Virus record (IMG/VR): IMGVR_UViG_2529292908_000011
Origin: a virus
Taxonomy: Duplodnaviria; Heunggongvirae; Uroviricota; Caudoviricetes
Direction: 5' to 3' (one strand)
DNA: 34,254 nt
Below are positions 20,521 to 27,653 of the stretch, piece by piece; positions within the stretch are counted from its first letter, which is position 1; each line of letters begins with the position of its first letter. Both the position numbers and the translations under genes were made by a program. A model generated the notes under the pieces. It ran no database searches and was not told the origin of the DNA. It was given only the letters and a program-made list of their open reading frames with translations.

Positions 20521-20607
20521 AAACGGGAATTTTTTCTCTGCGTGAGAGGGGGCGCGGTGTCCAAAGCGATCGTTTTTTACGCCGGATGATACCCCCCCGG
20601 GGTCGGG

Positions 20608-20973
20608 TTACAGTCCGATGATGTCGTCCTCTCTGCCACTACCTCCGGACACCTCCGGCAGCGTCGGGTCCGGCATATCACTCGCCGCTTCACGAGCAGA
20701 CTTTTGTCGATGGCATTCGGTACAGAGCGTCCAGAGATTCGTCTCCTCATTACCACCACCGAACTGAAGTGCAATTCGGTGATCGAGTTCACTGTCACAG
20801 AGGTCAACCACACGACCACAGAGACGGCACTGCCCGGCGTCCCTGAGCCAGATATGACGCTTGAGGGAAACACGTGCACTGCCACTGACACGACGCTGTT
20901 CACCCTTCAGAATATTCACCCGTCGGGTATTCAGTGTTTTGATTCTGCTCTGGAGTGTACGAAGCTCAGCCAT
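20608..20973 (-). CDS. HNH endonuclease (packaging-associated)
   Basis: 121-aa ORF with CRLCGRVVDLCDSELDHRIALQFGGGNEETNLWTLCTECHRQK, an HNH motif with two CxxC pairs. Confidence 0.85.
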   Translation of the reverse strand: MAELRTLQSRIKTLNTRRVNILKGEQRRVSGSARVSLKRHIWLRDAGQCRLCGRVVDLCDSELDHRIALQFGGGNEETNLWTLCTECHRQKSAREAASDMPDPTLPEVSGGSGREDDIIGL

Positions 20974-21014
20974 GTAAAATCCCCGTCATATGGCAATCAG
21001 TAAAGGAAATAAAT

Positions 21015-21215
21015 ATGTCATCGAAAAACCGTACCCGCAGAACCACAACCCGCAATATCCGTTTCCCCAATCACATGATTGAACAGATCAACATCGCCCT
21101 TGAGCATAAAGGGTCCGGTAACTTTTCAGCGTGGGTTATTGAAGCCTGCAGGAGAAGGCTGGCAACAGATGCAACGCATCTGCGCCCGGCCAGCATGAAA
21201 AATAACGAGAAATGA
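21015..21215 (+). CDS. small DUF3950-like (YlcI-like) protein
   Basis: Internal ATG of ORF 20955..21215 giving 66 aa MSSKNRTRRTTTRNIRFPNHMIEQINIALEHKGSGNFSAWVIEACRRRL...; AAAGGA Shine-Dalgarno. Family assignment from memory only. Confidence 0.45.
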   Translation: MSSKNRTRRTTTRNIRFPNHMIEQINIALEHKGSGNFSAWVIEACRRRLATDATHLRPASMKNNEK

Positions 21216-21346
21216 ACGTTCGGTTACAGGAGCAGGTACCCACTGTCCTCCAACAATATTTCATCTTCATATCCGACGGAACAAGACTTACCCTGCCGGG
21301 ATGTACAGAATAACAACAGAGTGATAATTAATTTCTGATGAAATAA

Positions 21347-21688
21347 TCAGGGTGCAGAAGGACTAAAGATAAACGTTTTCTTCACGCCTTTACACGGCCT
21401 GTCCTTCTCAAATCGCCATTTTGCCATCGCCTTTACAACCTGCTCATCAAACAAATGGTGCGGCTCTGAACGGATAAACTCAATTCGGGTGACAGTACCA
21501 TCAGCACCAATATCAAACTTCACATCAACCCGTCCCTTTATATAATTTGCCGCTGCATAGGCCGGATATTGTGGTAATGCCTTAACCAACTGTCGGGGCA
21601 TATCTGTTTTATGTTGCGTACAGCCCATAACCAGAGAAGACAACAAAATAATTAACGGAAGGTTTCTTTTCATTTTCATTCCCGGCAC
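21347..21688 (-). CDS. TonB C-terminal-domain lipoprotein (moron)
   Basis: 113-aa ORF with lipoprotein-like signal MKMKRNLPLIILLSSLVMGC and ...YPAYAAANYIKGRVDVKFDIGADGTVTRIEFIRSEPHHLFDEQVVKAMAKWRF... resembling a TonB_C fold. Confidence 0.6.
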   Translation of the reverse strand: MPGMKMKRNLPLIILLSSLVMGCTQHKTDMPRQLVKALPQYPAYAAANYIKGRVDVKFDIGADGTVTRIEFIRSEPHHLFDEQVVKAMAKWRFEKDRPCKGVKKTFIFSPSAP

Positions 21689-21923
21689 AGATAAGAATAC
21701 GTCTTATTCTAACAATGCCACCCTGTCGGTCATCAATCCTCTGCTTAATGGCAACGACAATTATCCGACTTAAATCACAAATCAGACACATGACATAACA
21801 GAGCTTGCGAGGTAACACATCGTCCGGTTTCTTCCACCATCGCACCGGACCAGCGACCATGAGGGGACAACGCCGCGCTCCGTTAACGCGGTAACCAGAA
21901 CAGGTCGAAGTAATACTCGCACG

Positions 21924-22202
21924 TTACCTCCAGATGCGTTGCTGGAATGTGCGGGACGGACGCGGTGAGCGTTCGGAGTAAGGAAGCCTGACGGAGATTA
22001 TCCAGTGACGATAATCGAGGCTGAGGGCTTTCTTAATCTCGTATCCGTGTCTGCGGTAGCACTGAATTAGCCACTCGGCCTGTTCTTCAGTGCATGGGGG
22101 ATGCTGGAACCAGTCAGATTTGAAAGTGCGGGAACGCCGCCCGTGCCTGCTGGCAAAGACGGCAGAATCATCAGAATTGTGTAATTTGGTATCGTGCACC
22201 AT
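21924..22202 (-). CDS. hypothetical small protein
   Basis: Internal ATG (MVHDTKLHNSDD...) of ORF 21924..22331, chosen because the longer ORF would run through the hok terminator hairpin. Weak support. Confidence 0.25.
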   Translation of the reverse strand: MVHDTKLHNSDDSAVFASRHGRRSRTFKSDWFQHPPCTEEQAEWLIQCYRRHGYEIKKALSLDYRHWIISVRLPYSERSPRPSRTFQQRIWR

Positions 22203-22273
22203 CGGTTGTCTCTGCTGGCGCAGCAGGTGCCAGTTGTTCAGGCTGGCGTGCGAATTGTAAACCAGAATGCCAG

Positions 22274-22301
22274 GAAAAAACAAAACCCGCCGAAGCGGGT
22301 T
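22274..22301 (-). terminator. intrinsic terminator of the hok transcript
   Basis: Minus-strand AACCCGC-ttcg-GCGGGTT followed by TTTGTTTTTTCC, ~70 nt downstream of the hok stop. Confidence 0.5.
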
Positions 22302-22369
22302 ACGTGCGGGTGCGTTGAGGATGCCTGACACATCAGAGGTGGCGAGGGATTTCTCCCTCGCCGGGTCTC

Positions 22370-22525
22370 TTACTCCTCAGGTTCGTAAACTGTGAAGACA
22401 GCGACCTCCGTCTGGCCGGTTCGGATTCGTACCTCGCAGAGGTCTTTCCTCGTTACCAGTGCCGTCACTATGACGGTTAAACAGATGACGATCAGGGCGA
22501 TTAACATCGCCTTTTGCTGCTTCAT
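22370..22525 (-). CDS. hokD: Hok/Gef-family type I toxin (HokD/RelF-like)
   Basis: Internal Met of ORF 22370..22582 gives MKQQKAMLIALIVICLTVIVTALVTRKDLCEVRIRTGQTEVAVFTVYEPEE (51 aa), nearly identical to recalled HokD. Confidence 0.85.
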   Translation of the reverse strand: MKQQKAMLIALIVICLTVIVTALVTRKDLCEVRIRTGQTEVAVFTVYEPEE

Positions 22526-22582
22526 AGCCTGCTTCTCCTTGCCTTTCGGCACGTAAGAGGCTAACCTAGATTTGCCGTTCAT
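22370..22582 (-). CDS. mok-like overlapping reading frame (in-frame N-terminal extension of hok)
   Basis: The 70-aa ORF MNGKSRLASYVPKGKEKQA... extends the hok frame upstream, as in hok/mok/sok loci. Confidence 0.35.
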   Translation of the reverse strand: MNGKSRLASYVPKGKEKQAMKQQKAMLIALIVICLTVIVTALVTRKDLCEVRIRTGQTEVAVFTVYEPEE

Positions 22583-22816
22583 AGATTGAGCCTCAGATTA
22601 ATGTTAAGCGTCTTGCAGGACGCGTAATGTTAACTGGGGCTTTTCTCTATCTGCCTTTTGGTATTCATGCCTGAGACAGATAGCCTCAAGCACCCGCAGC
22701 AATTCTACTTAACTATCCTTTCCCCGCAAATCGTTTTTATCCCCAGCGACAAATCGAATACACCACCAGCGCCACCGCCATTGCGATCCCTACCGTTGTG
22801 AATGCCTCAGGCCAGG

Positions 22817-23161
22817 TCATCGTAAAACATCCTCTGCGCTTATCAGTCCGTTTCGCTTCAGGTAGTCCATCGCCTTACCCGGCAATTTACAGTCCGGCTT
22901 CGTTTTCCTCAGTTGCCAGGTTAACTGCTTTACCAGCATGGTTAACTCGTCGACCAGACGCTGATGTCCCACTGGTTTGTATTCATGCAATTTACCGGCT
23001 GGCTCTGCTGCCAGCGATGCCAGTGCGATTTCCAGAACAGCAATATCCATCTTATATGTGCGGATGATGTCATGGTCGATTGTGCCCGGTATGCACAGTC
23101 TCTGTGCTTCAATAGTCTCCTCTGCGTGAGCTATTAACTGCTCTCTGGTAAAAGTGGTCAT
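22817..23161 (-). CDS. hypothetical accessory protein (N-terminus paralogous to the 23675..24100 product)
   Basis: 114 aa [20 protein letters not shown]...[10 protein letters not shown]...; shares the MTxxTxEQLI...IAL(T/A)SL(E/A)AEP pattern with the ORF at 23675..24100. Confidence 0.5.
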
Positions 23162-23673
23162 GCCGCGCTTCCTTCTTGCTTATTAACGATTACACCGTCA
23201 TATATTTCATTAAGGTGTCCCCTCAACTCCATGCGCCTTAATGCAGACAACATGTAATCGCATTCAACCTGCTTATTTCCAGTAAATGGCTTATCGTCAG
23301 GATCACCCCAACAGCAATTACCCTTGGGCCACCCATGTACTTTCCGTACTCTTCCGTTAACAACGTGAAGTAATCCCCAGCCAGGTGGTAAATCCTCAAT
23401 TGAAATAATTCCCGGCTCACTAATAAAGAATCTCCAGTCGCCCATGCCAAGAGAGGGATTTTTACGGAAACGCTTTTTTCTATCTGCCAACAAGTCAGCA
23501 CGAGAACACTTCGCCTCTATCAGGCATGATGCTGAATTTCTGAATCCCATAGCATCTGGTTGTTCTCCAGTACTGGTTACAGCAACAAAGCGGTCATGAA
23601 AGCAAACCTTGAACCCGTTGCGCTTAAGGAACCTGTACGCAATCTGACAGAGTTCGCGGTGTGTTAACGCCAT
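23158..23673 (-). CDS. putative PD-(D/E)xK nuclease-fold protein
   Basis: 171 aa with ...[26 protein letters not shown]..., a D...ExK arrangement with typical spacing. Coupled to neighbours by overlapping stop/start. Confidence 0.45.
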
Positions 23674-23674
23674 C

Positions 23675-24100
23675 TCATTCTCCTTTGATGCGAATGTTTA
23701 CAACCTGACAAACCTCTTTGAGTACCCAGTCAACAGCGTCTTTCCACGCTCCAGTCTCAACTGGCGGATTCTCACGTTTTACTTGTTCATAGAAGTGCAC
23801 AGCTTTAACCAGTCCTTCAGGTACTACAGGCACTGGCGGCATGCGATACAATGGAGTAACACAACGCGAAGCCTCATATTTATCTGACGGACGCTGAAAT
23901 ATCTCACCGAACCCATATTTTTCAATATCTCGCAGTTCCTCGTCGTCAGTCCATGCCACCGGTTCTGCTTCCAGCGATGTCAGTGCAATTTTGAATAACT
24001 CACCCTCTACTCGTGCCACGCCTGAATTGGGATGGCATTTCGCAATCGCTATTTTTAATTTGGCTTCTTCGATTAATTGCTCTTTTGTTAATTCAGTCAT
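23675..24100 (-). CDS. hypothetical Ea22-like accessory protein
   Basis: 141 aa. Its C-terminal ...NIRIKGE and 3' DNA (ctcctttgatgcgaatg) are repeated at the end of the 24530..24991 gene. Confidence 0.5.
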   Translation of the reverse strand: MTELTKEQLIEEAKLKIAIAKCHPNSGVARVEGELFKIALTSLEAEPVAWTDDEELRDIEKYGFGEIFQRPSDKYEASRCVTPLYRMPPVPVVPEGLVKAVHFYEQVKRENPPVETGAWKDAVDWVLKEVCQVVNIRIKGE

Positions 24101-24195
24101 TTTTCATTACCGCTCTTTCTGGCGGCCTCCTGATGTTCTGAGGGTGCAGAAATCCCTCCGGCTAAGGATTAAATTTTTAACAGTTCTAAATTTAA

Positions 24196-24552
24196 CTATT
24201 CAGTTCTGGATTTTGTCGCCCTGCGTATCCGCGCTTTCGCGTTACGCTCAATCTGAATTAGCTTTTCTATATTTTTCCGTCTTTCCCGTTCCTCCTGACG
24301 CAATAGCCTTACATCATCTGCCAGTCTGGTTTCTCTTTTCGCCACAGAGAGCATCCAGTCAAATGGCTCCACAACTGCGCCGCAGATTTTACAGCGGACC
24401 TGACGCTCTTTTTCATCAACCCGGACAGAGGCGTGATGGCAGTATGGTCTTTCCGATGGCTCATAAAGAAAATTAACCTGATTACGCGGGTCATCCTCTT
24501 TTACAGGAAATAAAACGATATTGCTTAACTCATCCTCTGGTTTTATTTCCAT
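24196..24552 (-). CDS. hypothetical zinc-ribbon protein with basic coiled-coil C-terminus
   Basis: 118 aa with ...YCHHASVRVDEKERQVRCKICGAVVEPFDW... followed by an R/K/E-rich tail. Confidence 0.5.
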   Translation of the reverse strand: MEIKPEDELSNIVLFPVKEDDPRNQVNFLYEPSERPYCHHASVRVDEKERQVRCKICGAVVEPFDWMLSVAKRETRLADDVRLLRQEERERRKNIEKLIQIERNAKARIRRATKSRTE

Positions 24553-24991
24553 GCTCCTCTCCTTTGATGCGAATGCCAGCGACGCGTAATGCGTGTTCTA
24601 GGTCAATCAGGTAAAGCCAACTGCCATTTTCTTTAGGTATCATGACATGTCGCTCATCTGCATTTATCGGGTGTCCATATCGAAGGTCGTAGCGAGTCGG
24701 TAATTGAACTTCCCGCGCTTCCAGTGCAGCAATACGCTTGCTCCCATCAGAGATAACGCCTTCGTAATACTCACGCTGCTCGTTGAGTTGTGATTTTGCT
24801 TCTTCCAGTCCATCCAGCAAATCAGCGATAATATCCGCTTCCCGATGACGGATGTGACGCTTAAACGCAGCAAGAGCCGCATCACAATCCCGTTCAGCAT
24901 TTGGGCTGTCCGGGATAGCCTGATACCACGCCAGCGTCGACTGATAGTTTTGTGCTGCCTCACGAAGCGCCTCATAGTTAACCTCTCTCAT
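24530..24991 (-). CDS. hypothetical Ea22-like accessory protein
   Basis: 153 aa, AGGAGG Shine-Dalgarno, ATG overlaps the upstream stop (ATGA); C-terminal ...GIRIKGE shared with the 23675..24100 product. Confidence 0.5.
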   Translation of the reverse strand: MREVNYEALREAAQNYQSTLAWYQAIPDSPNAERDCDAALAAFKRHIRHREADIIADLLDGLEEAKSQLNEQREYYEGVISDGSKRIAALEAREVQLPTRYDLRYGHPINADERHVMIPKENGSWLYLIDLEHALRVAGIRIKGEEHGNKTRG

Positions 24992-25249
24992 TGAGCCACC
25001 TCCTGATAAATCACCGCATGCCCCAGTTTCTCCGCCAGTGCCAGCTCTGCCTTAGCGCCCGCTGACCGCTGCCAGCCATTCAGCATGTAAATCGCATCCA
25101 CACAACGAATCATTGCCATGCAAATATCCATGTAGTGCGGCTGTGTCAGCCCGTCCGGAAGTACTGCCGGGTTTAAGACGGTATGCCCTTCCCGTTTCAG
25201 TTCCTCTTACGGATACGCTCAAGAACACCACCTGTCGCGATATTTTTCA
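24988..25249 (-). pseudogene. DUF4406-like small protein remnant, frameshifted
   Basis: Minus strand reads MKNIATGGVLERIRKRN then stop; the next frame continues ...ELKREGHTVLNPAVLPDGLTQPHYMDICMAMIRCVDAIYMLNGWQRSAGAKAELALAEKLGHAVIYQEVAQ. Family name recalled from motif only. Confidence 0.4.
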
Positions 25250-25256
25250 TGGCCCG

Positions 25257-26222
25257 TTACCCCCTGAACCCCGGCGGAATTTCGGTATCCGGCTCAGAAA
25301 TATGATTCACGCAACGCTGTACAGACGAACGCCCCAGGCGGATAACCAGTTCATCCCATTTTTCGCGAAGCTTTGACGGACTCATGATATTTTTTACCCA
25401 GAATGGATCCCGCTGCGCCCGACCAAACATTTCACAAATTTGTCTGTGAGTTCTGCCATCCAGCATCCGCATTGTGCGCACGTCGTTGGCCCATGCGGTC
25501 CAGTTGGGTTCTTTCGGTCGCGAAATCTCGCCATCATCGCTGGCGGCCTGCTCGTAAAGACTCACGATTCGTCCCCAGATCCACTGCGCACACGCCAAAT
25601 CTTCCTGGTTGCCCCACTGGCGTTTTTTTGCACTGAACACAACCGCGTCAGGGTGTCGGGTTAAAAAATCCTGTTCAACCGTCTGCGGGTCCGGTTGCGA
25701 AGCTTCCGGACGAGAAGTGTTTTTATTCTCTGTAGTAATCTCTGTTGTATTCTCTGTAAGATCATCAGGCCATTTTGACCCGATGACATTGAGTCGTTTT
25801 GAACCAATGGAACGTGCCATTTTGGCCCCTTCCATCGTGTCATTCTGACCTGATGGAGCAGCGCATTTTGACCTGATGGATTCGCTCACTTTGCCACCAT
25901 TTAAAAGCTCGCTCTCGTAATTAATCGTGTAAAAATTAGTCATATCACGCTTTGATTTATTGAGCTTTTCGCAACGCAAAAGCCCCAGCGTTTTCAGACT
26001 TGCAAATGCGCGTTTTAACGTTGACTCTGACCAGAACGGGAACTGCTCCAGCCATTGTTCTGTTGTGTTATAAATCCAGCGAACACCATCACATTCCATG
26101 CCGGAACCGGTATCTCTCAACCAGTAATGCAACTGCTGCAACACGATGGCTTCGTTCAGACCAATTTTCATCGCCAGCTGCGTGTTTATAACCAGCGGAC
26201 GTTCAGCAAAAAGGAGCTTCAT
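25257..26222 (-). CDS. replication initiation protein (phage replisome-organizer N-terminal domain)
   Basis: ATG at 26222 chosen (the longer ORF starts with GTG at 26279). N-terminus MKLLFAERPLVINTQLAMKIGLNEAIVLQQLHYWL...; C-terminal ...WGNQEDLACAQWIWGRIVSLYEQ.... Confidence 0.65.
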   Translation of the reverse strand: MKLLFAERPLVINTQLAMKIGLNEAIVLQQLHYWLRDTGSGMECDGVRWIYNTTEQWLEQFPFWSESTLKRAFASLKTLGLLRCEKLNKSKRDMTNFYTINYESELLNGGKVSESIRSKCAAPSGQNDTMEGAKMARSIGSKRLNVIGSKWPDDLTENTTEITTENKNTSRPEASQPDPQTVEQDFLTRHPDAVVFSAKKRQWGNQEDLACAQWIWGRIVSLYEQAASDDGEISRPKEPNWTAWANDVRTMRMLDGRTHRQICEMFGRAQRDPFWVKNIMSPSKLREKWDELVIRLGRSSVQRCVNHISEPDTEIPPGFRG

Positions 26223-26241
26223 CCCCCCCCAGAACACGTTA

Positions 26242-26667
26242 TCAATGCGCCACCACGGCATTTCCCGCCGGACAACCACGATTCATCTGATCGAACAACA
26301 CGATCGCTGCCGCAACAAACTCATCGATATCTTTCACCAGGCGCTCCCGTCGCTCGACAAGCTCCCGGTGATATTCCGAACTGTGGCTGCGCATTCGGGC
26401 CACCAGTGGAGGCGGCATTGCTTTTTCGATCGCCGGTAACAACGCCTGAATTTTTTTAACCGCATCAGGGGTGTCTTTTTCTACCCAGCGGAAAATTTTC
26501 TGGGTATTACGAGACAGGGCTTCCGGATGGCTGTCGTCATACAGTTCAGGAAACGTCATACCCAACTCAAAATAAGCCTGGGTTATTCCAGCTACTGGAA
26601 CTTTTTCGCCATCAGGACGCGCCCAGGCATTCATCGCCATGCGGATGTGTTCATGCTTGATTTTCAT
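26242..26667 (-). CDS. YdaT-like protein
   Basis: 141 aa starting MKIKHEHIRMAMNAWARPDGEK..., positioned after the cro-like gene as in Rac ydaS-ydaT. Confidence 0.6.
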   Translation of the reverse strand: MKIKHEHIRMAMNAWARPDGEKVPVAGITQAYFELGMTFPELYDDSHPEALSRNTQKIFRWVEKDTPDAVKKIQALLPAIEKAMPPPLVARMRSHSSEYHRELVERRERLVKDIDEFVAAAIVLFDQMNRGCPAGNAVVAH

Positions 26668-26923
26668 GAATCAACTCCGGTGCATTTGATGTGTTAACCT
26701 TGAATCCAACAGGTAAACCGTCGGTTGGGTTAGGATAAATATCAGGGCGAATTTCATGCGGGGTAACTTCCCACTTCATTAGCTGACATAACGGAATTAC
26801 CTGCTTTGGGGGAACGTCAAAGCTAAACCATTGCCAAACTGTCTGTTGAGCGACCCCCATATAACGACCTATTTCAGCTTGAGTGTATTTCTGCCTAATT
26901 TTTTCGCGAGTGCTATCTAGCAT
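26651..26923 (-). CDS. Cro/YdaS-like HTH regulator, divergent from the repressor
   Basis: 90 aa with HTH ...YTQAEIGRYMGVAQQTVWQWF...; strong Shine-Dalgarno AGAGGAG. Confidence 0.65.
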   Translation of the reverse strand: MLDSTREKIRQKYTQAEIGRYMGVAQQTVWQWFSFDVPPKQVIPLCQLMKWEVTPHEIRPDIYPNPTDGLPVGFKVNTSNAPELIHENQA

Positions 26924-26962
26924 TTTGCTCTCCTCTAAAAAACTATAAGCAAAGCCTACAAT

Positions 26963-26991
26963 AAAAAACTGTACACAATCAACAGTTTTTT
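26963..26991. promoter_or_regulatory. operator-like palindrome AAAAAACTGT-N9-ACAGTTTTTT in the divergent repressor/cro-like intergenic region
   Basis: Perfect 10-bp inverted repeat read directly; same core as the element at 27993-28029. Confidence 0.5.
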
Positions 26992-27032
26992 ATTGTGATG
27001 CTTTTAACAGTATTTACCTGTAAAATTGAATA

Positions 27033-27434
27033 ATGATGAACGCCCTAGAAGTATCTATGTACAGAATCAGCAAGCTTCTTCAGGAAACTGGATGGAGCCA
27101 GGCTGAGCTTGCCCGTAGAATTGGTGTGACACAACAAACTGTTCAACAATGGGTCAGCGGTAAGGCTACACCTAAAGCCTCAAGTTTGGATAAACTGGTT
27201 GAGGTTACAGGGCATCCATTGCATTGGTTTTTATTGCCTCCTGAAGAGGGGGAGCAAATTTTCACCCCTGACACGATGAAAATTGGTCCTCGTCAACGCG
27301 AACTGCTCCAGGCTTTTAGTGCGTTTCCAGAGGAAGACCAAGAAAAAATGCTTCAAGAAATCAAAGACAAGAAAAAATCAATGGAAGAAACCATTGCCCG
27401 GTGGTTGGCGGCACAAAAAAGCCGCCGGGCGTGA
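27033..27434 (+). CDS. XRE-family prophage repressor (DicA/RacR-like)
   Basis: 133 aa with HTH ...ISKLLQETGWSQAELARRIGVTQQTVQQWVSG... and a C-terminal dimerisation-like region. No Shine-Dalgarno; TAAAAT -10 ends 7 nt before the ATG, suggesting a leaderless mRNA. Start could be M9. Confidence 0.8.
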   Translation: MMNALEVSMYRISKLLQETGWSQAELARRIGVTQQTVQQWVSGKATPKASSLDKLVEVTGHPLHWFLLPPEEGEQIFTPDTMKIGPRQRELLQAFSAFPEEDQEKMLQEIKDKKKSMEETIARWLAAQKSRRA

Positions 27435-27461
27435 CCACAGTACAAGAAGAGGAGTTATGCC

Positions 27462-27653
27462 ATGAGTACAGCCCTTTCTCCGATAGTTTCAGAATTCGAA
27501 ACTACCGAACAAGAAAACAGTTACAACGAATGGTTACGCGCTAAAGTGGCGTCAAGCCTTGCTGACCCTCGTCCCTCAATTCCACATGATGAGGTAATGG
27601 CTGAAATGGAGAATCTTATTGCTCAAATTGCTGTAACTAACAGGAGCGAGTAA
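27462..27653 (+). CDS. type II antitoxin (partner of the ParE-family toxin)
   Basis: 63-aa acidic ORF MSTALSPIVSEFETTEQENSYNEWLRAKV... whose stop overlaps the toxin ATG by 1 nt. Confidence 0.6.
   Translation: MSTALSPIVSEFETTEQENSYNEWLRAKVASSLADPRPSIPHDEVMAEMENLIAQIAVTNRSE

Follow-up and report, generated by a model that had tools for sequence, protein, structure and literature searches.

Five small minus-strand genes, g1 to g5, lie at positions 22,817–24,991 of a 34,254-nucleotide stretch of viral DNA (IMG/VR record IMGVR_UViG_2529292908_000011, Caudoviricetes; the whole of this stretch is hereafter called the window) and probably represent a mosaic array of independent accessory cassettes within the delayed-early rightward operon of an Escherichia coli prophage of the Qin/Rac type, with g4 encoding a nuclease. 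In the organization proposed here three Ea-type proteins (g1, g3 and g5) are interspersed with two unrelated cargo genes, g2 and g4. A short conserved junction, CATTCGCATCAAAGGAGA, precedes each of these two, and because it holds the Shine–Dalgarno sequence of the cargo gene it forces the upstream protein to end in ...IRIKGE; behind each cargo gene the Ea-type gene that comes next begins with a conserved sequence (ATGACxAC..., MTxxT...). The short shared sequences could act as joints for cassette swaps carried out by phage recombinases such as Red or RecT.

The junction and the exchange of cassettes

An initial annotation of this DNA, made from the sequence by a model, had pointed to a repeated DNA junction within the cluster. 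The repeat is real, the 17-mer given there occurring exactly twice as against zero times in shuffled sequences, and is in effect an exact 18-mer; its placement at 23682 and 24552, on the other hand, has to be amended to that given in Table 1. On the coding strand the AAGGAG of the junction is located ~6 nt (g4) to 9 nt (g2) upstream of the next start codon. That two of the products share a C-terminal ...IRIKGE is likewise borne out, g1 and g3 being similar over 29 C-terminal positions, 13 of which are identical (45%, E = 7e-5), with g1 ending ...AGIRIKGE followed by 8 extra codons that read into g2. Modular shuffling does take place in this region; the explanation of IRIKGE as a shuffled protein domain, however, has been replaced by one in which the motif is mainly the imprint of the junction, that is to say largely a coding shadow of the ribosome-binding site of the next gene. 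Since in one of the loci described below (L020) an unrelated 62-aa protein encoded upstream of g4 also ends in ...TKGE, the shared tail appears to be largely a by-product of the ribosome-binding site of the downstream gene.

The extent of the mosaic was surveyed in 80 IMG/VR loci chosen only for carrying g4 (≥96% identical). In ~70 of these 80 loci the block shared with the window begins within the junction, at 23692–23699, and ends at 23139–23147, i.e., 14–22 nt into the following gene, and is set between unrelated flanks; the block containing g2 (24581–24102) also recurs, at 94–95% identity, with flanks that differ. When up to two mismatches are allowed, the junction is found 85 times in the 80 loci, where it connects 15 upstream gene ends with 7 downstream genes in 24 combinations, and all 7 genes found downstream of it are non-Ea “cargo” genes. 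One of these cargo types is a small Cys-rich gene (MAIAASYTMHLYCDCRQC...; 4868–5119 of L020). In two loci (L059 and L072) the C-terminal part of g1 is joined directly to g4 through the junction, and this arrangement is the product expected from recombination between the two junction copies of the window.

The distribution of the genes among 5426 complete E. coli genomes conveys the same picture: some part of the 2.7-kb region is present in 4720 of them, g2 in 1679 and g4 in 931, whereas at least 80% of the five-gene arrangement is present in only 16. Because g2 and g4 each occur in many contexts and the full arrangement in these 16 genomes only, the five genes are independent cassettes swapped at short shared sequences and not one system; the functional unit of five genes envisaged in the initial annotation must accordingly be given up. 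Homeologous recombination by Red- and Rad52-like phage recombinases has been reported to leave homology traces at approximately half of mosaic borders (PMC3945230), and the mosaic of the window agrees with this published recombination between diverged sequences.

Table 1. Features of the gene cluster and its surroundings (window coordinates unless a locus is named)
Feature	Position	Strand	Description
g1	24530–24991	−	153 aa, Ea22-family protein
g2	24196–24552	−	118 aa, zinc-ribbon protein with one long basic C-terminal helix (predicted)
g3	23675–24100	−	141 aa, P22 Eaa-like modular protein, ends NIRIKGE
g4	23158–23673	−	171 aa, predicted PD-(D/E)xK nuclease, MmcB/Hjc type
g5	22817–23161	−	114 aa, short Eaa-type derivative
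Sixth coupled ORF	22737–22820	−	27-aa hydrophobic peptide, after g5
g2–g3 spacer	24101–24195		95 nt
Junction copy 1	23679–23696	−	CATTCGCATCAAAGGAGA; encodes ...IRIKGE of g3; contains AAGGAG, the g4 ribosome-binding site; marks the 5′ boundary of the g4 cassette
Junction copy 2	24558–24575	−	...IRIKGE of g1; ribosome-binding site of g2; just inside the 5′ end of the g2 cassette (24581)
g2 cassette	24102–24581	−	Includes the g2–g3 spacer
g4 cassette	23140–23696	−	557 bp, exchanged between prophages
DUF4406 gene	24988–25284	−	Upstream of g1; 5′ end truncated
isrK-like match	22280–22361	−	Just downstream of hok; sub-threshold
Pseudogene call over g4 start	23495–23673		L001 6896–7074, L002 4602–4780; DNA 100% or 99% identical to the window

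A predicted nuclease of the MmcB/Hjc type

The product of g4 is predicted to be a PD-(D/E)xK endonuclease of the MmcB/Hjc type on the strength of its conserved motif, its modelled fold and the matches found with profiles. The D...ExK nuclease-like motif noticed in the initial annotation corresponds to D40, E53 and K55, and although a lack of conservation in homologues had been named there as grounds for discarding it, the motif turns out to be conserved: D27, E37, D40, E53 and K55 are invariant in 28 homologues with at least 59% identity, while among 34 sequences with 35–54% identity the invariant positions are D40, D60, G78, R81 and E137, and conservation is at least 90% at E37, P39, E53 and K55. 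An exhaustive profile search (E ≤ 0.001) yielded 3228 representatives of clusters formed at 50% identity; the close homologues are typically about 160–175 aa long and possess no Pfam domain of their own.

In the AlphaFold2 (AF2) model of g4 (predicted local distance difference test, pLDDT, 73.6; predicted template modelling score, pTM, 0.71) a helix (residues 5–18), two strands (41–45 and 48–54), a further helix (58–64) and another strand (80–85) are predicted, with D40 at the start of a strand and E53-x-K55 on the following one, and the α-β-β-β-α-β order of the core is reproduced except for the poorly modelled first strand. The broad family profile (A3) matches 3dnx, the closest solved structure, in the PDB with E = 1.4e-4, Hjc chains being marginal; the narrow profile (A1) matches 3dnx with an insignificant E = 0.59 and the single sequence of g4 has no significant match among PDB sequences. 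As to Pfam, Hjc (PF01870) gives weak matches in 19 of the 34 relatives (best E = 1.3e-4, below threshold) and MmcB-like (PF06319) in 11 of the 34 (best E = 2.9e-4), and the matches of g4 in the viral structure collection BFVD carry MmcB-like names. Since the relatives match weakly and the protein of the window reaches no curated threshold, g4 is filed as a new subfamily of MmcB/Hjc-type nucleases and not as a member of PF06319.

Comparison with 47 distinct copies gives a ratio of nonsynonymous to synonymous substitution rates (dN/dS) of ~0.1 and reveals no internal stops, all copies being intact. In RefSeq, the Prokaryotic Genome Annotation Pipeline (PGAP) has annotated only the start of g4, as a “frameshifted” pseudogene of 179 nt, leaving the remainder of the gene without annotation, yet the 171-aa open reading frame (ORF) is intact in both relatives so annotated (L001 and L002). 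Given a dN/dS of ~0.1 and the integrity of every copy, this call is an annotation artefact.

Other architectures are found among homologues of g4. In Salmonella homologues (among P0094, P0105, P0255 and P0361) the nuclease domain shares its called ORF with an N-terminus of the Ea22 type and a linker rich in Gln and His; in P0255 it is preceded by a 260-aa N-terminal domain of no known type and P0361 bears a long C-terminal extension. These architectures, taken from called ORFs, may be putative fusions or over-extended gene calls.

Homologues of g4 are present in 641 phage records, and the genetic context of distant ones was read in six phages. In the Kuttervirus Cba120 the homologue is directly upstream of a gp61-type primase and in Klebsiella phage phi1_146021 it is directly upstream of a primase; in Vibrio phage SD15 it follows a DnaB-like helicase, a second helicase and a polymerase, in SD25 it adjoins a DprA-like protein and in D279 it comes after a replication initiator, NinB/Orf and a methyltransferase. 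In the sixth, Vibrio phage 29Fa.3, it is found among hypothetical genes only and the context is uninformative. The placement of g4 homologues in the replication/recombination modules of virulent phages points to DNA metabolism. MmcB itself is described as a PD-(D/E)xK endonuclease that protects against crosslink damage (PMC9578287). On account of these contexts and of the MmcB literature, g4 would be a structure-specific endonuclease acting on branched or damaged DNA (junctions, forks, flaps), whose substrates would arise in the course of phage replication and recombination after induction, in a role possibly analogous to that of Rap (NinG) or RusA of the lambda nin region. No paper dealing directly with these genes came out of a literature search on phage-encoded MmcB.

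Of the matches of g4 in complete E. coli genomes, 250 out of 1299 are on plasmids, compared to only 26 out of 2136 for g2, which suggests that Ea-type arrays containing g4 also reside on phage-plasmids. A match of g1 is found in the P1-like phage RCS47.

Ea-type proteins, the zinc-ribbon protein and their genomic setting

In Ea22 a short N-terminal domain is followed by a coiled coil and then by a C-terminal domain that varies, and the Ea22 that has been studied, that of lambda, has a lysis–lysogeny phenotype, favoring lysogeny (PMC10834534); it is the only studied member of the hypervariable Ea families. The product of g1 matches Ead_Ea22 (PF13935) over residues 3–65 with 44.2 bits (cut-off 27) and, in a tblastn comparison, lambda Ea22 over residues 1–108 (38.6% identity, E = 2e-9); it has the N-terminal and coiled-coil parts of Ea22 and a different C-terminal domain, for which no PDB sequence match was found. 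The initial annotation had spoken of Ea22-like paralogs, a description that suits g1; the other two are better described as P22 Eaa-like (g3) and Eaa-type (g5), neither of them having a Pfam match to PF13935.

BLASTP aligns g3 over 96% of its length, with 48–50% identity, to Salmonella proteins that their sources name “protein Eaa”, and PHROG 660 matches its residues 1–140; the alignment resolves an N-terminal module, a variable middle and a conserved C-terminal module, and no significant match was found among PDB sequences. The overlap of g3 with the Ea22-type g1 is restricted to about 30 C-terminal residues, while the N-terminal similarity that had been noticed between two of the products is that between g3 and g5 (19 of 56 residues identical, 34%, E = 6e-5). 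From its alignment with proteins of 183–193 aa (P0447, P0456 and P0457), g5 consists of the N-terminal module plus the C-terminal tail found in longer relatives behind a core resembling g3, PHROG 660 positions 146–193 matching g5 residues 67–114. In some Eaa-type relatives of g3 (P0457) the variable middle contains an insert that is rich in Cys and resembles a zinc finger (CCCCGW...CPKC).

The stop codon of g5 is overlapped, by ATGA, by a sixth coupled ORF. This ORF is kept, with conservative substitutions, in 31 of the 80 related loci, and it turns up again as a block of its own behind other Ea-type arrays. Its sole family match is a weak one to PHROG 4612, and it is unannotated in the RefSeq neighbours.

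As regards g2, the zinc ribbon read in the initial annotation as CHH...CxxC stands as such, with the pattern to be corrected to CxH...CxxC as the second histidine is not conserved. C38, H40, C54 and C57, as well as most of the segment LRxEExxRRxNIEKLIQIERNAKARIRR, are invariant in 20 homologues down to 45% identity, and the four conserved metal ligands are predicted to lie on two β-hairpin knuckles. The AF2 model has β-hairpins at residues 43–61 (strands 43–46 and 51–54) and a basic helix of 55 residues (63–117), with a pLDDT of about 90–95 over residues 81–110. The score against the TFIIB-type zinc ribbon of Pfam (PF08271; 21.6 bits, cut-off 29) is below threshold and the best PDB match, also a TFIIB zinc ribbon, is weak (E = 0.24); a search of the PDB with the g2 profile and a Foldseek search with the g2 model gave weak zinc-ribbon matches, none of them full-length. 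The family is confined to temperate phages of Enterobacterales, where it is located in the exo-xis or nin region, nearly always beside Ea-type genes, and dN/dS is 0.03–0.08 with all examined copies intact. A plausible guess is that g2 would bind nucleic acid or another protein as a small regulator.

The five ORFs are located, as initially described, between the replication genes and hok, and sok is present as well (Rfam, 112 bits). Scanning the five products against NCBIfam gave nothing usable. They had also been described as being all stop/start coupled, and this is the case for g1/g2 (23-nt overlap), g3/g4 (1-nt spacer) and g4/g5 (ATGA overlap) but not for g2/g3, which are 95 nt apart. The RNA folding of this spacer is not above that of shuffled sequences (z = −0.87), no Rfam match was found in it and its promoter and terminator scan is at or below chance. 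Over the gene cluster as a whole nothing in the scan for promoters and terminators exceeds the shuffled expectation, so that no internal promoter is apparent, and the five genes are co-oriented with the early lytic operon. An Rfam search over 21000–27500 found, apart from sok, a single sub-threshold match outside the cluster, to the Hfq-binding small RNA isrK (27.8 bits compared to a gathering score of 50, E = 0.005).

Upstream of the cluster are a truncated DUF4406 gene, an O-like replication gene and YdaT/YdaS, and near-identical DNA is found in E. coli chromosomes. The E. coli relative examined is a Qin/Rac-type lambdoid prophage inserted beside potC in which the order of the genes is: regulator, YdaT, O, DnaC-like ATPase, DUF1627, DUF977, DUF4406, the five genes, hokD, DUF968, RusA and Q. 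This gene order, in the window and in its relatives, places the cluster, which lies between the replication genes and hok/sok, in the counterpart of the nin region within the early rightward operon of a Qin/Rac-type prophage. In the DUF4406 gene the likeness to other E. coli prophages ends near 25208 and there is an in-frame TAA ahead of the remaining frame, the sole ORF of the remnant being one of 47 aa starting from an internal ATG; the truncation has the appearance of a joint formed by recombination with another kind of replication module.

In the closest relatives hokD is followed by DUF968, RusA, Q and a DNA methyltransferase. The window has instead a TonB_C lipoprotein, an HNH gene and terminase genes within ~1.4 kb, and, unlike in the relatives, neither Q nor lysis genes were seen in the segment of the window beyond hok. 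An IS1 is present in the early-left region, and in view of these features (window 19754–22370 and 28458–29156) the prophage may be defective or rearranged.

Alternative explanations and relation to known systems

Several points weigh against the reading of the region as an array of independent cassettes that includes a nuclease. The functions proposed for all five proteins come from computation, and those of g2 and of the Ea-type proteins have a weak basis. The AF2 model of g4 is of medium confidence, its 25 C-terminal residues being unreliable, and the g4 of the window has no Pfam match up to E = 10, remaining below every curated threshold, so that the Pfam matches, which are weak, come from its relatives alone. 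Moreover, the closest relatives of the prophage also encode RusA, in the presence of which a second junction-cutting enzyme would be redundant. Finally, efficient pairing by Red-beta requires a minimal segment of 23–27 bp (PMC3945230) and the exact junction, with its 18 nt, is below this minimum, so that we infer recombination at the junction from the mosaic pattern.

The alternative that survives best, and is nonetheless improbable, is that one or more of the five genes counteracts host defence during early lytic growth; g4 might, for instance, degrade part of a defence system, or such a part might be bound and blocked by g2 or by an Ea-type protein. Small, mosaic and variable early genes are typical of counter-defence loci, and the five genes are small and highly mosaic, belong to the early lytic operon and differ from one prophage to another even where the rest is similar; none of their products has an assigned function. 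On the other hand, a literature search found no link of Ea22-like proteins or of the other genes of the cluster to anti-defence, and the one Ea22 that has been studied has a lysis–lysogeny phenotype (PMC10834534). Furthermore, genera of virulent phages have g4 as a conserved gene of their replication modules, and purifying selection on it is strong, two properties for which a core role in DNA metabolism suits it better; an anti-defence role for g4 is therefore not favoured.

A second possibility, which we consider very unlikely, is that the Ea-type genes and the 18-nt junction constitute a dedicated scaffold for cassette exchange, the phage counterpart of a gene-cassette array. In such a scaffold the conserved ends of the Ea-type genes would be mainly recombination handles for the swapping of small cargo genes, at least seven types of which have been seen, and a cut made by the g4 nuclease at the junction or close to it might set off the exchange.

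Less probable again is the premise that g4 is a selfish cassette of the homing-endonuclease type that cuts the junction in g4-free arrays and is copied in by repair. The g4 cassette is indeed a discrete unit of 557 bp that recurs with at least 95% identity between many different flanks and ends sharply at two conserved sequences; it is found in both exo-xis and nin regions and reaches up to 6 copies per genome. However, non-nuclease cassettes (g2 and five further types) display the same behaviour at the junction, which means that a nuclease is not needed to explain it; in addition, g4 has no separate DNA-recognition domain and its family is conserved at full length over ~3,200 clusters and keeps the same place next to the primase throughout a virulent genus, a pattern unlike that of sporadic, decaying homing genes.

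That the cluster protects the lysogen against other phages, g4 being the effector nuclease, was one of the prospects raised by the initial annotation, which had considered defence as well as anti-defence functions, and it is highly improbable. A nuclease with small partner genes in a variable prophage region that adjoins the toxin–antitoxin locus hok/sok would be in keeping with such a function. Yet PADLOC-DB 2.0 gave no match for four of the five proteins and a chance-level one (E = 0.033) for g2; the genes, co-oriented and mostly coupled with the lytic early operon and having no internal promoter above chance, should be silent in the lysogen, they do not travel together and g4 has homologues in virulent phages, all of which makes a role in lysogen protection unlikely.

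The least credible of all the readings is that the genes are non-functional remnants, a reading that appeals to the PGAP pseudogene in 100%-identical DNA and to the defective look of the prophage (IS1, the truncated DUF4406 gene, the lack after hok of the Q and lysis genes of the relatives) and that was rejected as largely refuted by an intact 171-aa ORF matching at full length a family of 160–175 aa, by a dN/dS of ~0.1 over 47 distinct copies devoid of internal stops and by the similar condition of g2.

As a lambdoid accessory array the region is typical, though heavily reshuffled; it fills in known pictures and overturns no current ideas. The most useful thing in it is a mis-annotated family of MmcB/Hjc-type phage nucleases, which comprises ~3,200 clusters, is found in 641 phage records and in 17% of the complete E. 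coli genomes and has no Pfam or NCBIfam model of its own. A model of the family and one biochemical study would mend the annotation of thousands of genes, and the homologues found beside primase and helicase genes in virulent phages suggest a general role in replication or recombination. The junction, in turn, offers a countable example of lambdoid accessory reshuffling at a sequence that is at the same time the end of a gene and the ribosome-binding site of the next one.

As far as known systems are concerned, g1 belongs with lambda Ea22 and P22 Ead (PF13935), scoring above the family threshold and aligning with the lambda protein up to residue 108, where the alignment ends and beyond which its C-terminal domain is unrelated; furthermore, it lies in a rightward, nin-type region whereas the lambda Ea22 type belongs to the exo-xis region. 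P22 Eaa, for which we know of no function, is the counterpart of g3, which has full-length similarity to the Eaa-named Salmonella proteins and differs in carrying the IRIKGE tail, and of the shortened g5, which has only the N-terminal module and the C-terminal tail in common with it. With the MmcB-like proteins (PF06319; 3dnx, i.e., SPO1766; Caulobacter MmcB) g4 shares sequence and predicted fold similarity to 3dnx; unlike them, it possesses a conserved C-terminal half of its own (GMGDWRF, WGLL, NKQxE, SALRR) outside the part aligned with 3dnx and is borne by phages, whereas MmcB is encoded by an SOS-regulated chromosomal gene. The archaeal Holliday junction resolvase Hjc (PF01870) would have the nuclease core in common with g4, whose matches to it are sub-threshold and which bears an extra C-terminal region. 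The Rap (NinG) and RusA proteins of lambda, encoded between the replication genes and Q, process branched recombination intermediates and would share with g4 both genome position and proposed role; no relationship of sequence or fold exists between them, and the likeness is one of analogy only. Finally, as in the lambdoid mosaic exchange that takes place at short conserved sequences, the cassettes described here are bounded by such sequences and are found in many combinations of flanks; what distinguishes them from general lambdoid mosaicism is that one specific sequence of 18 nt forms the joint and at the same time supplies the ribosome-binding site of one gene and the end of the protein encoded upstream.

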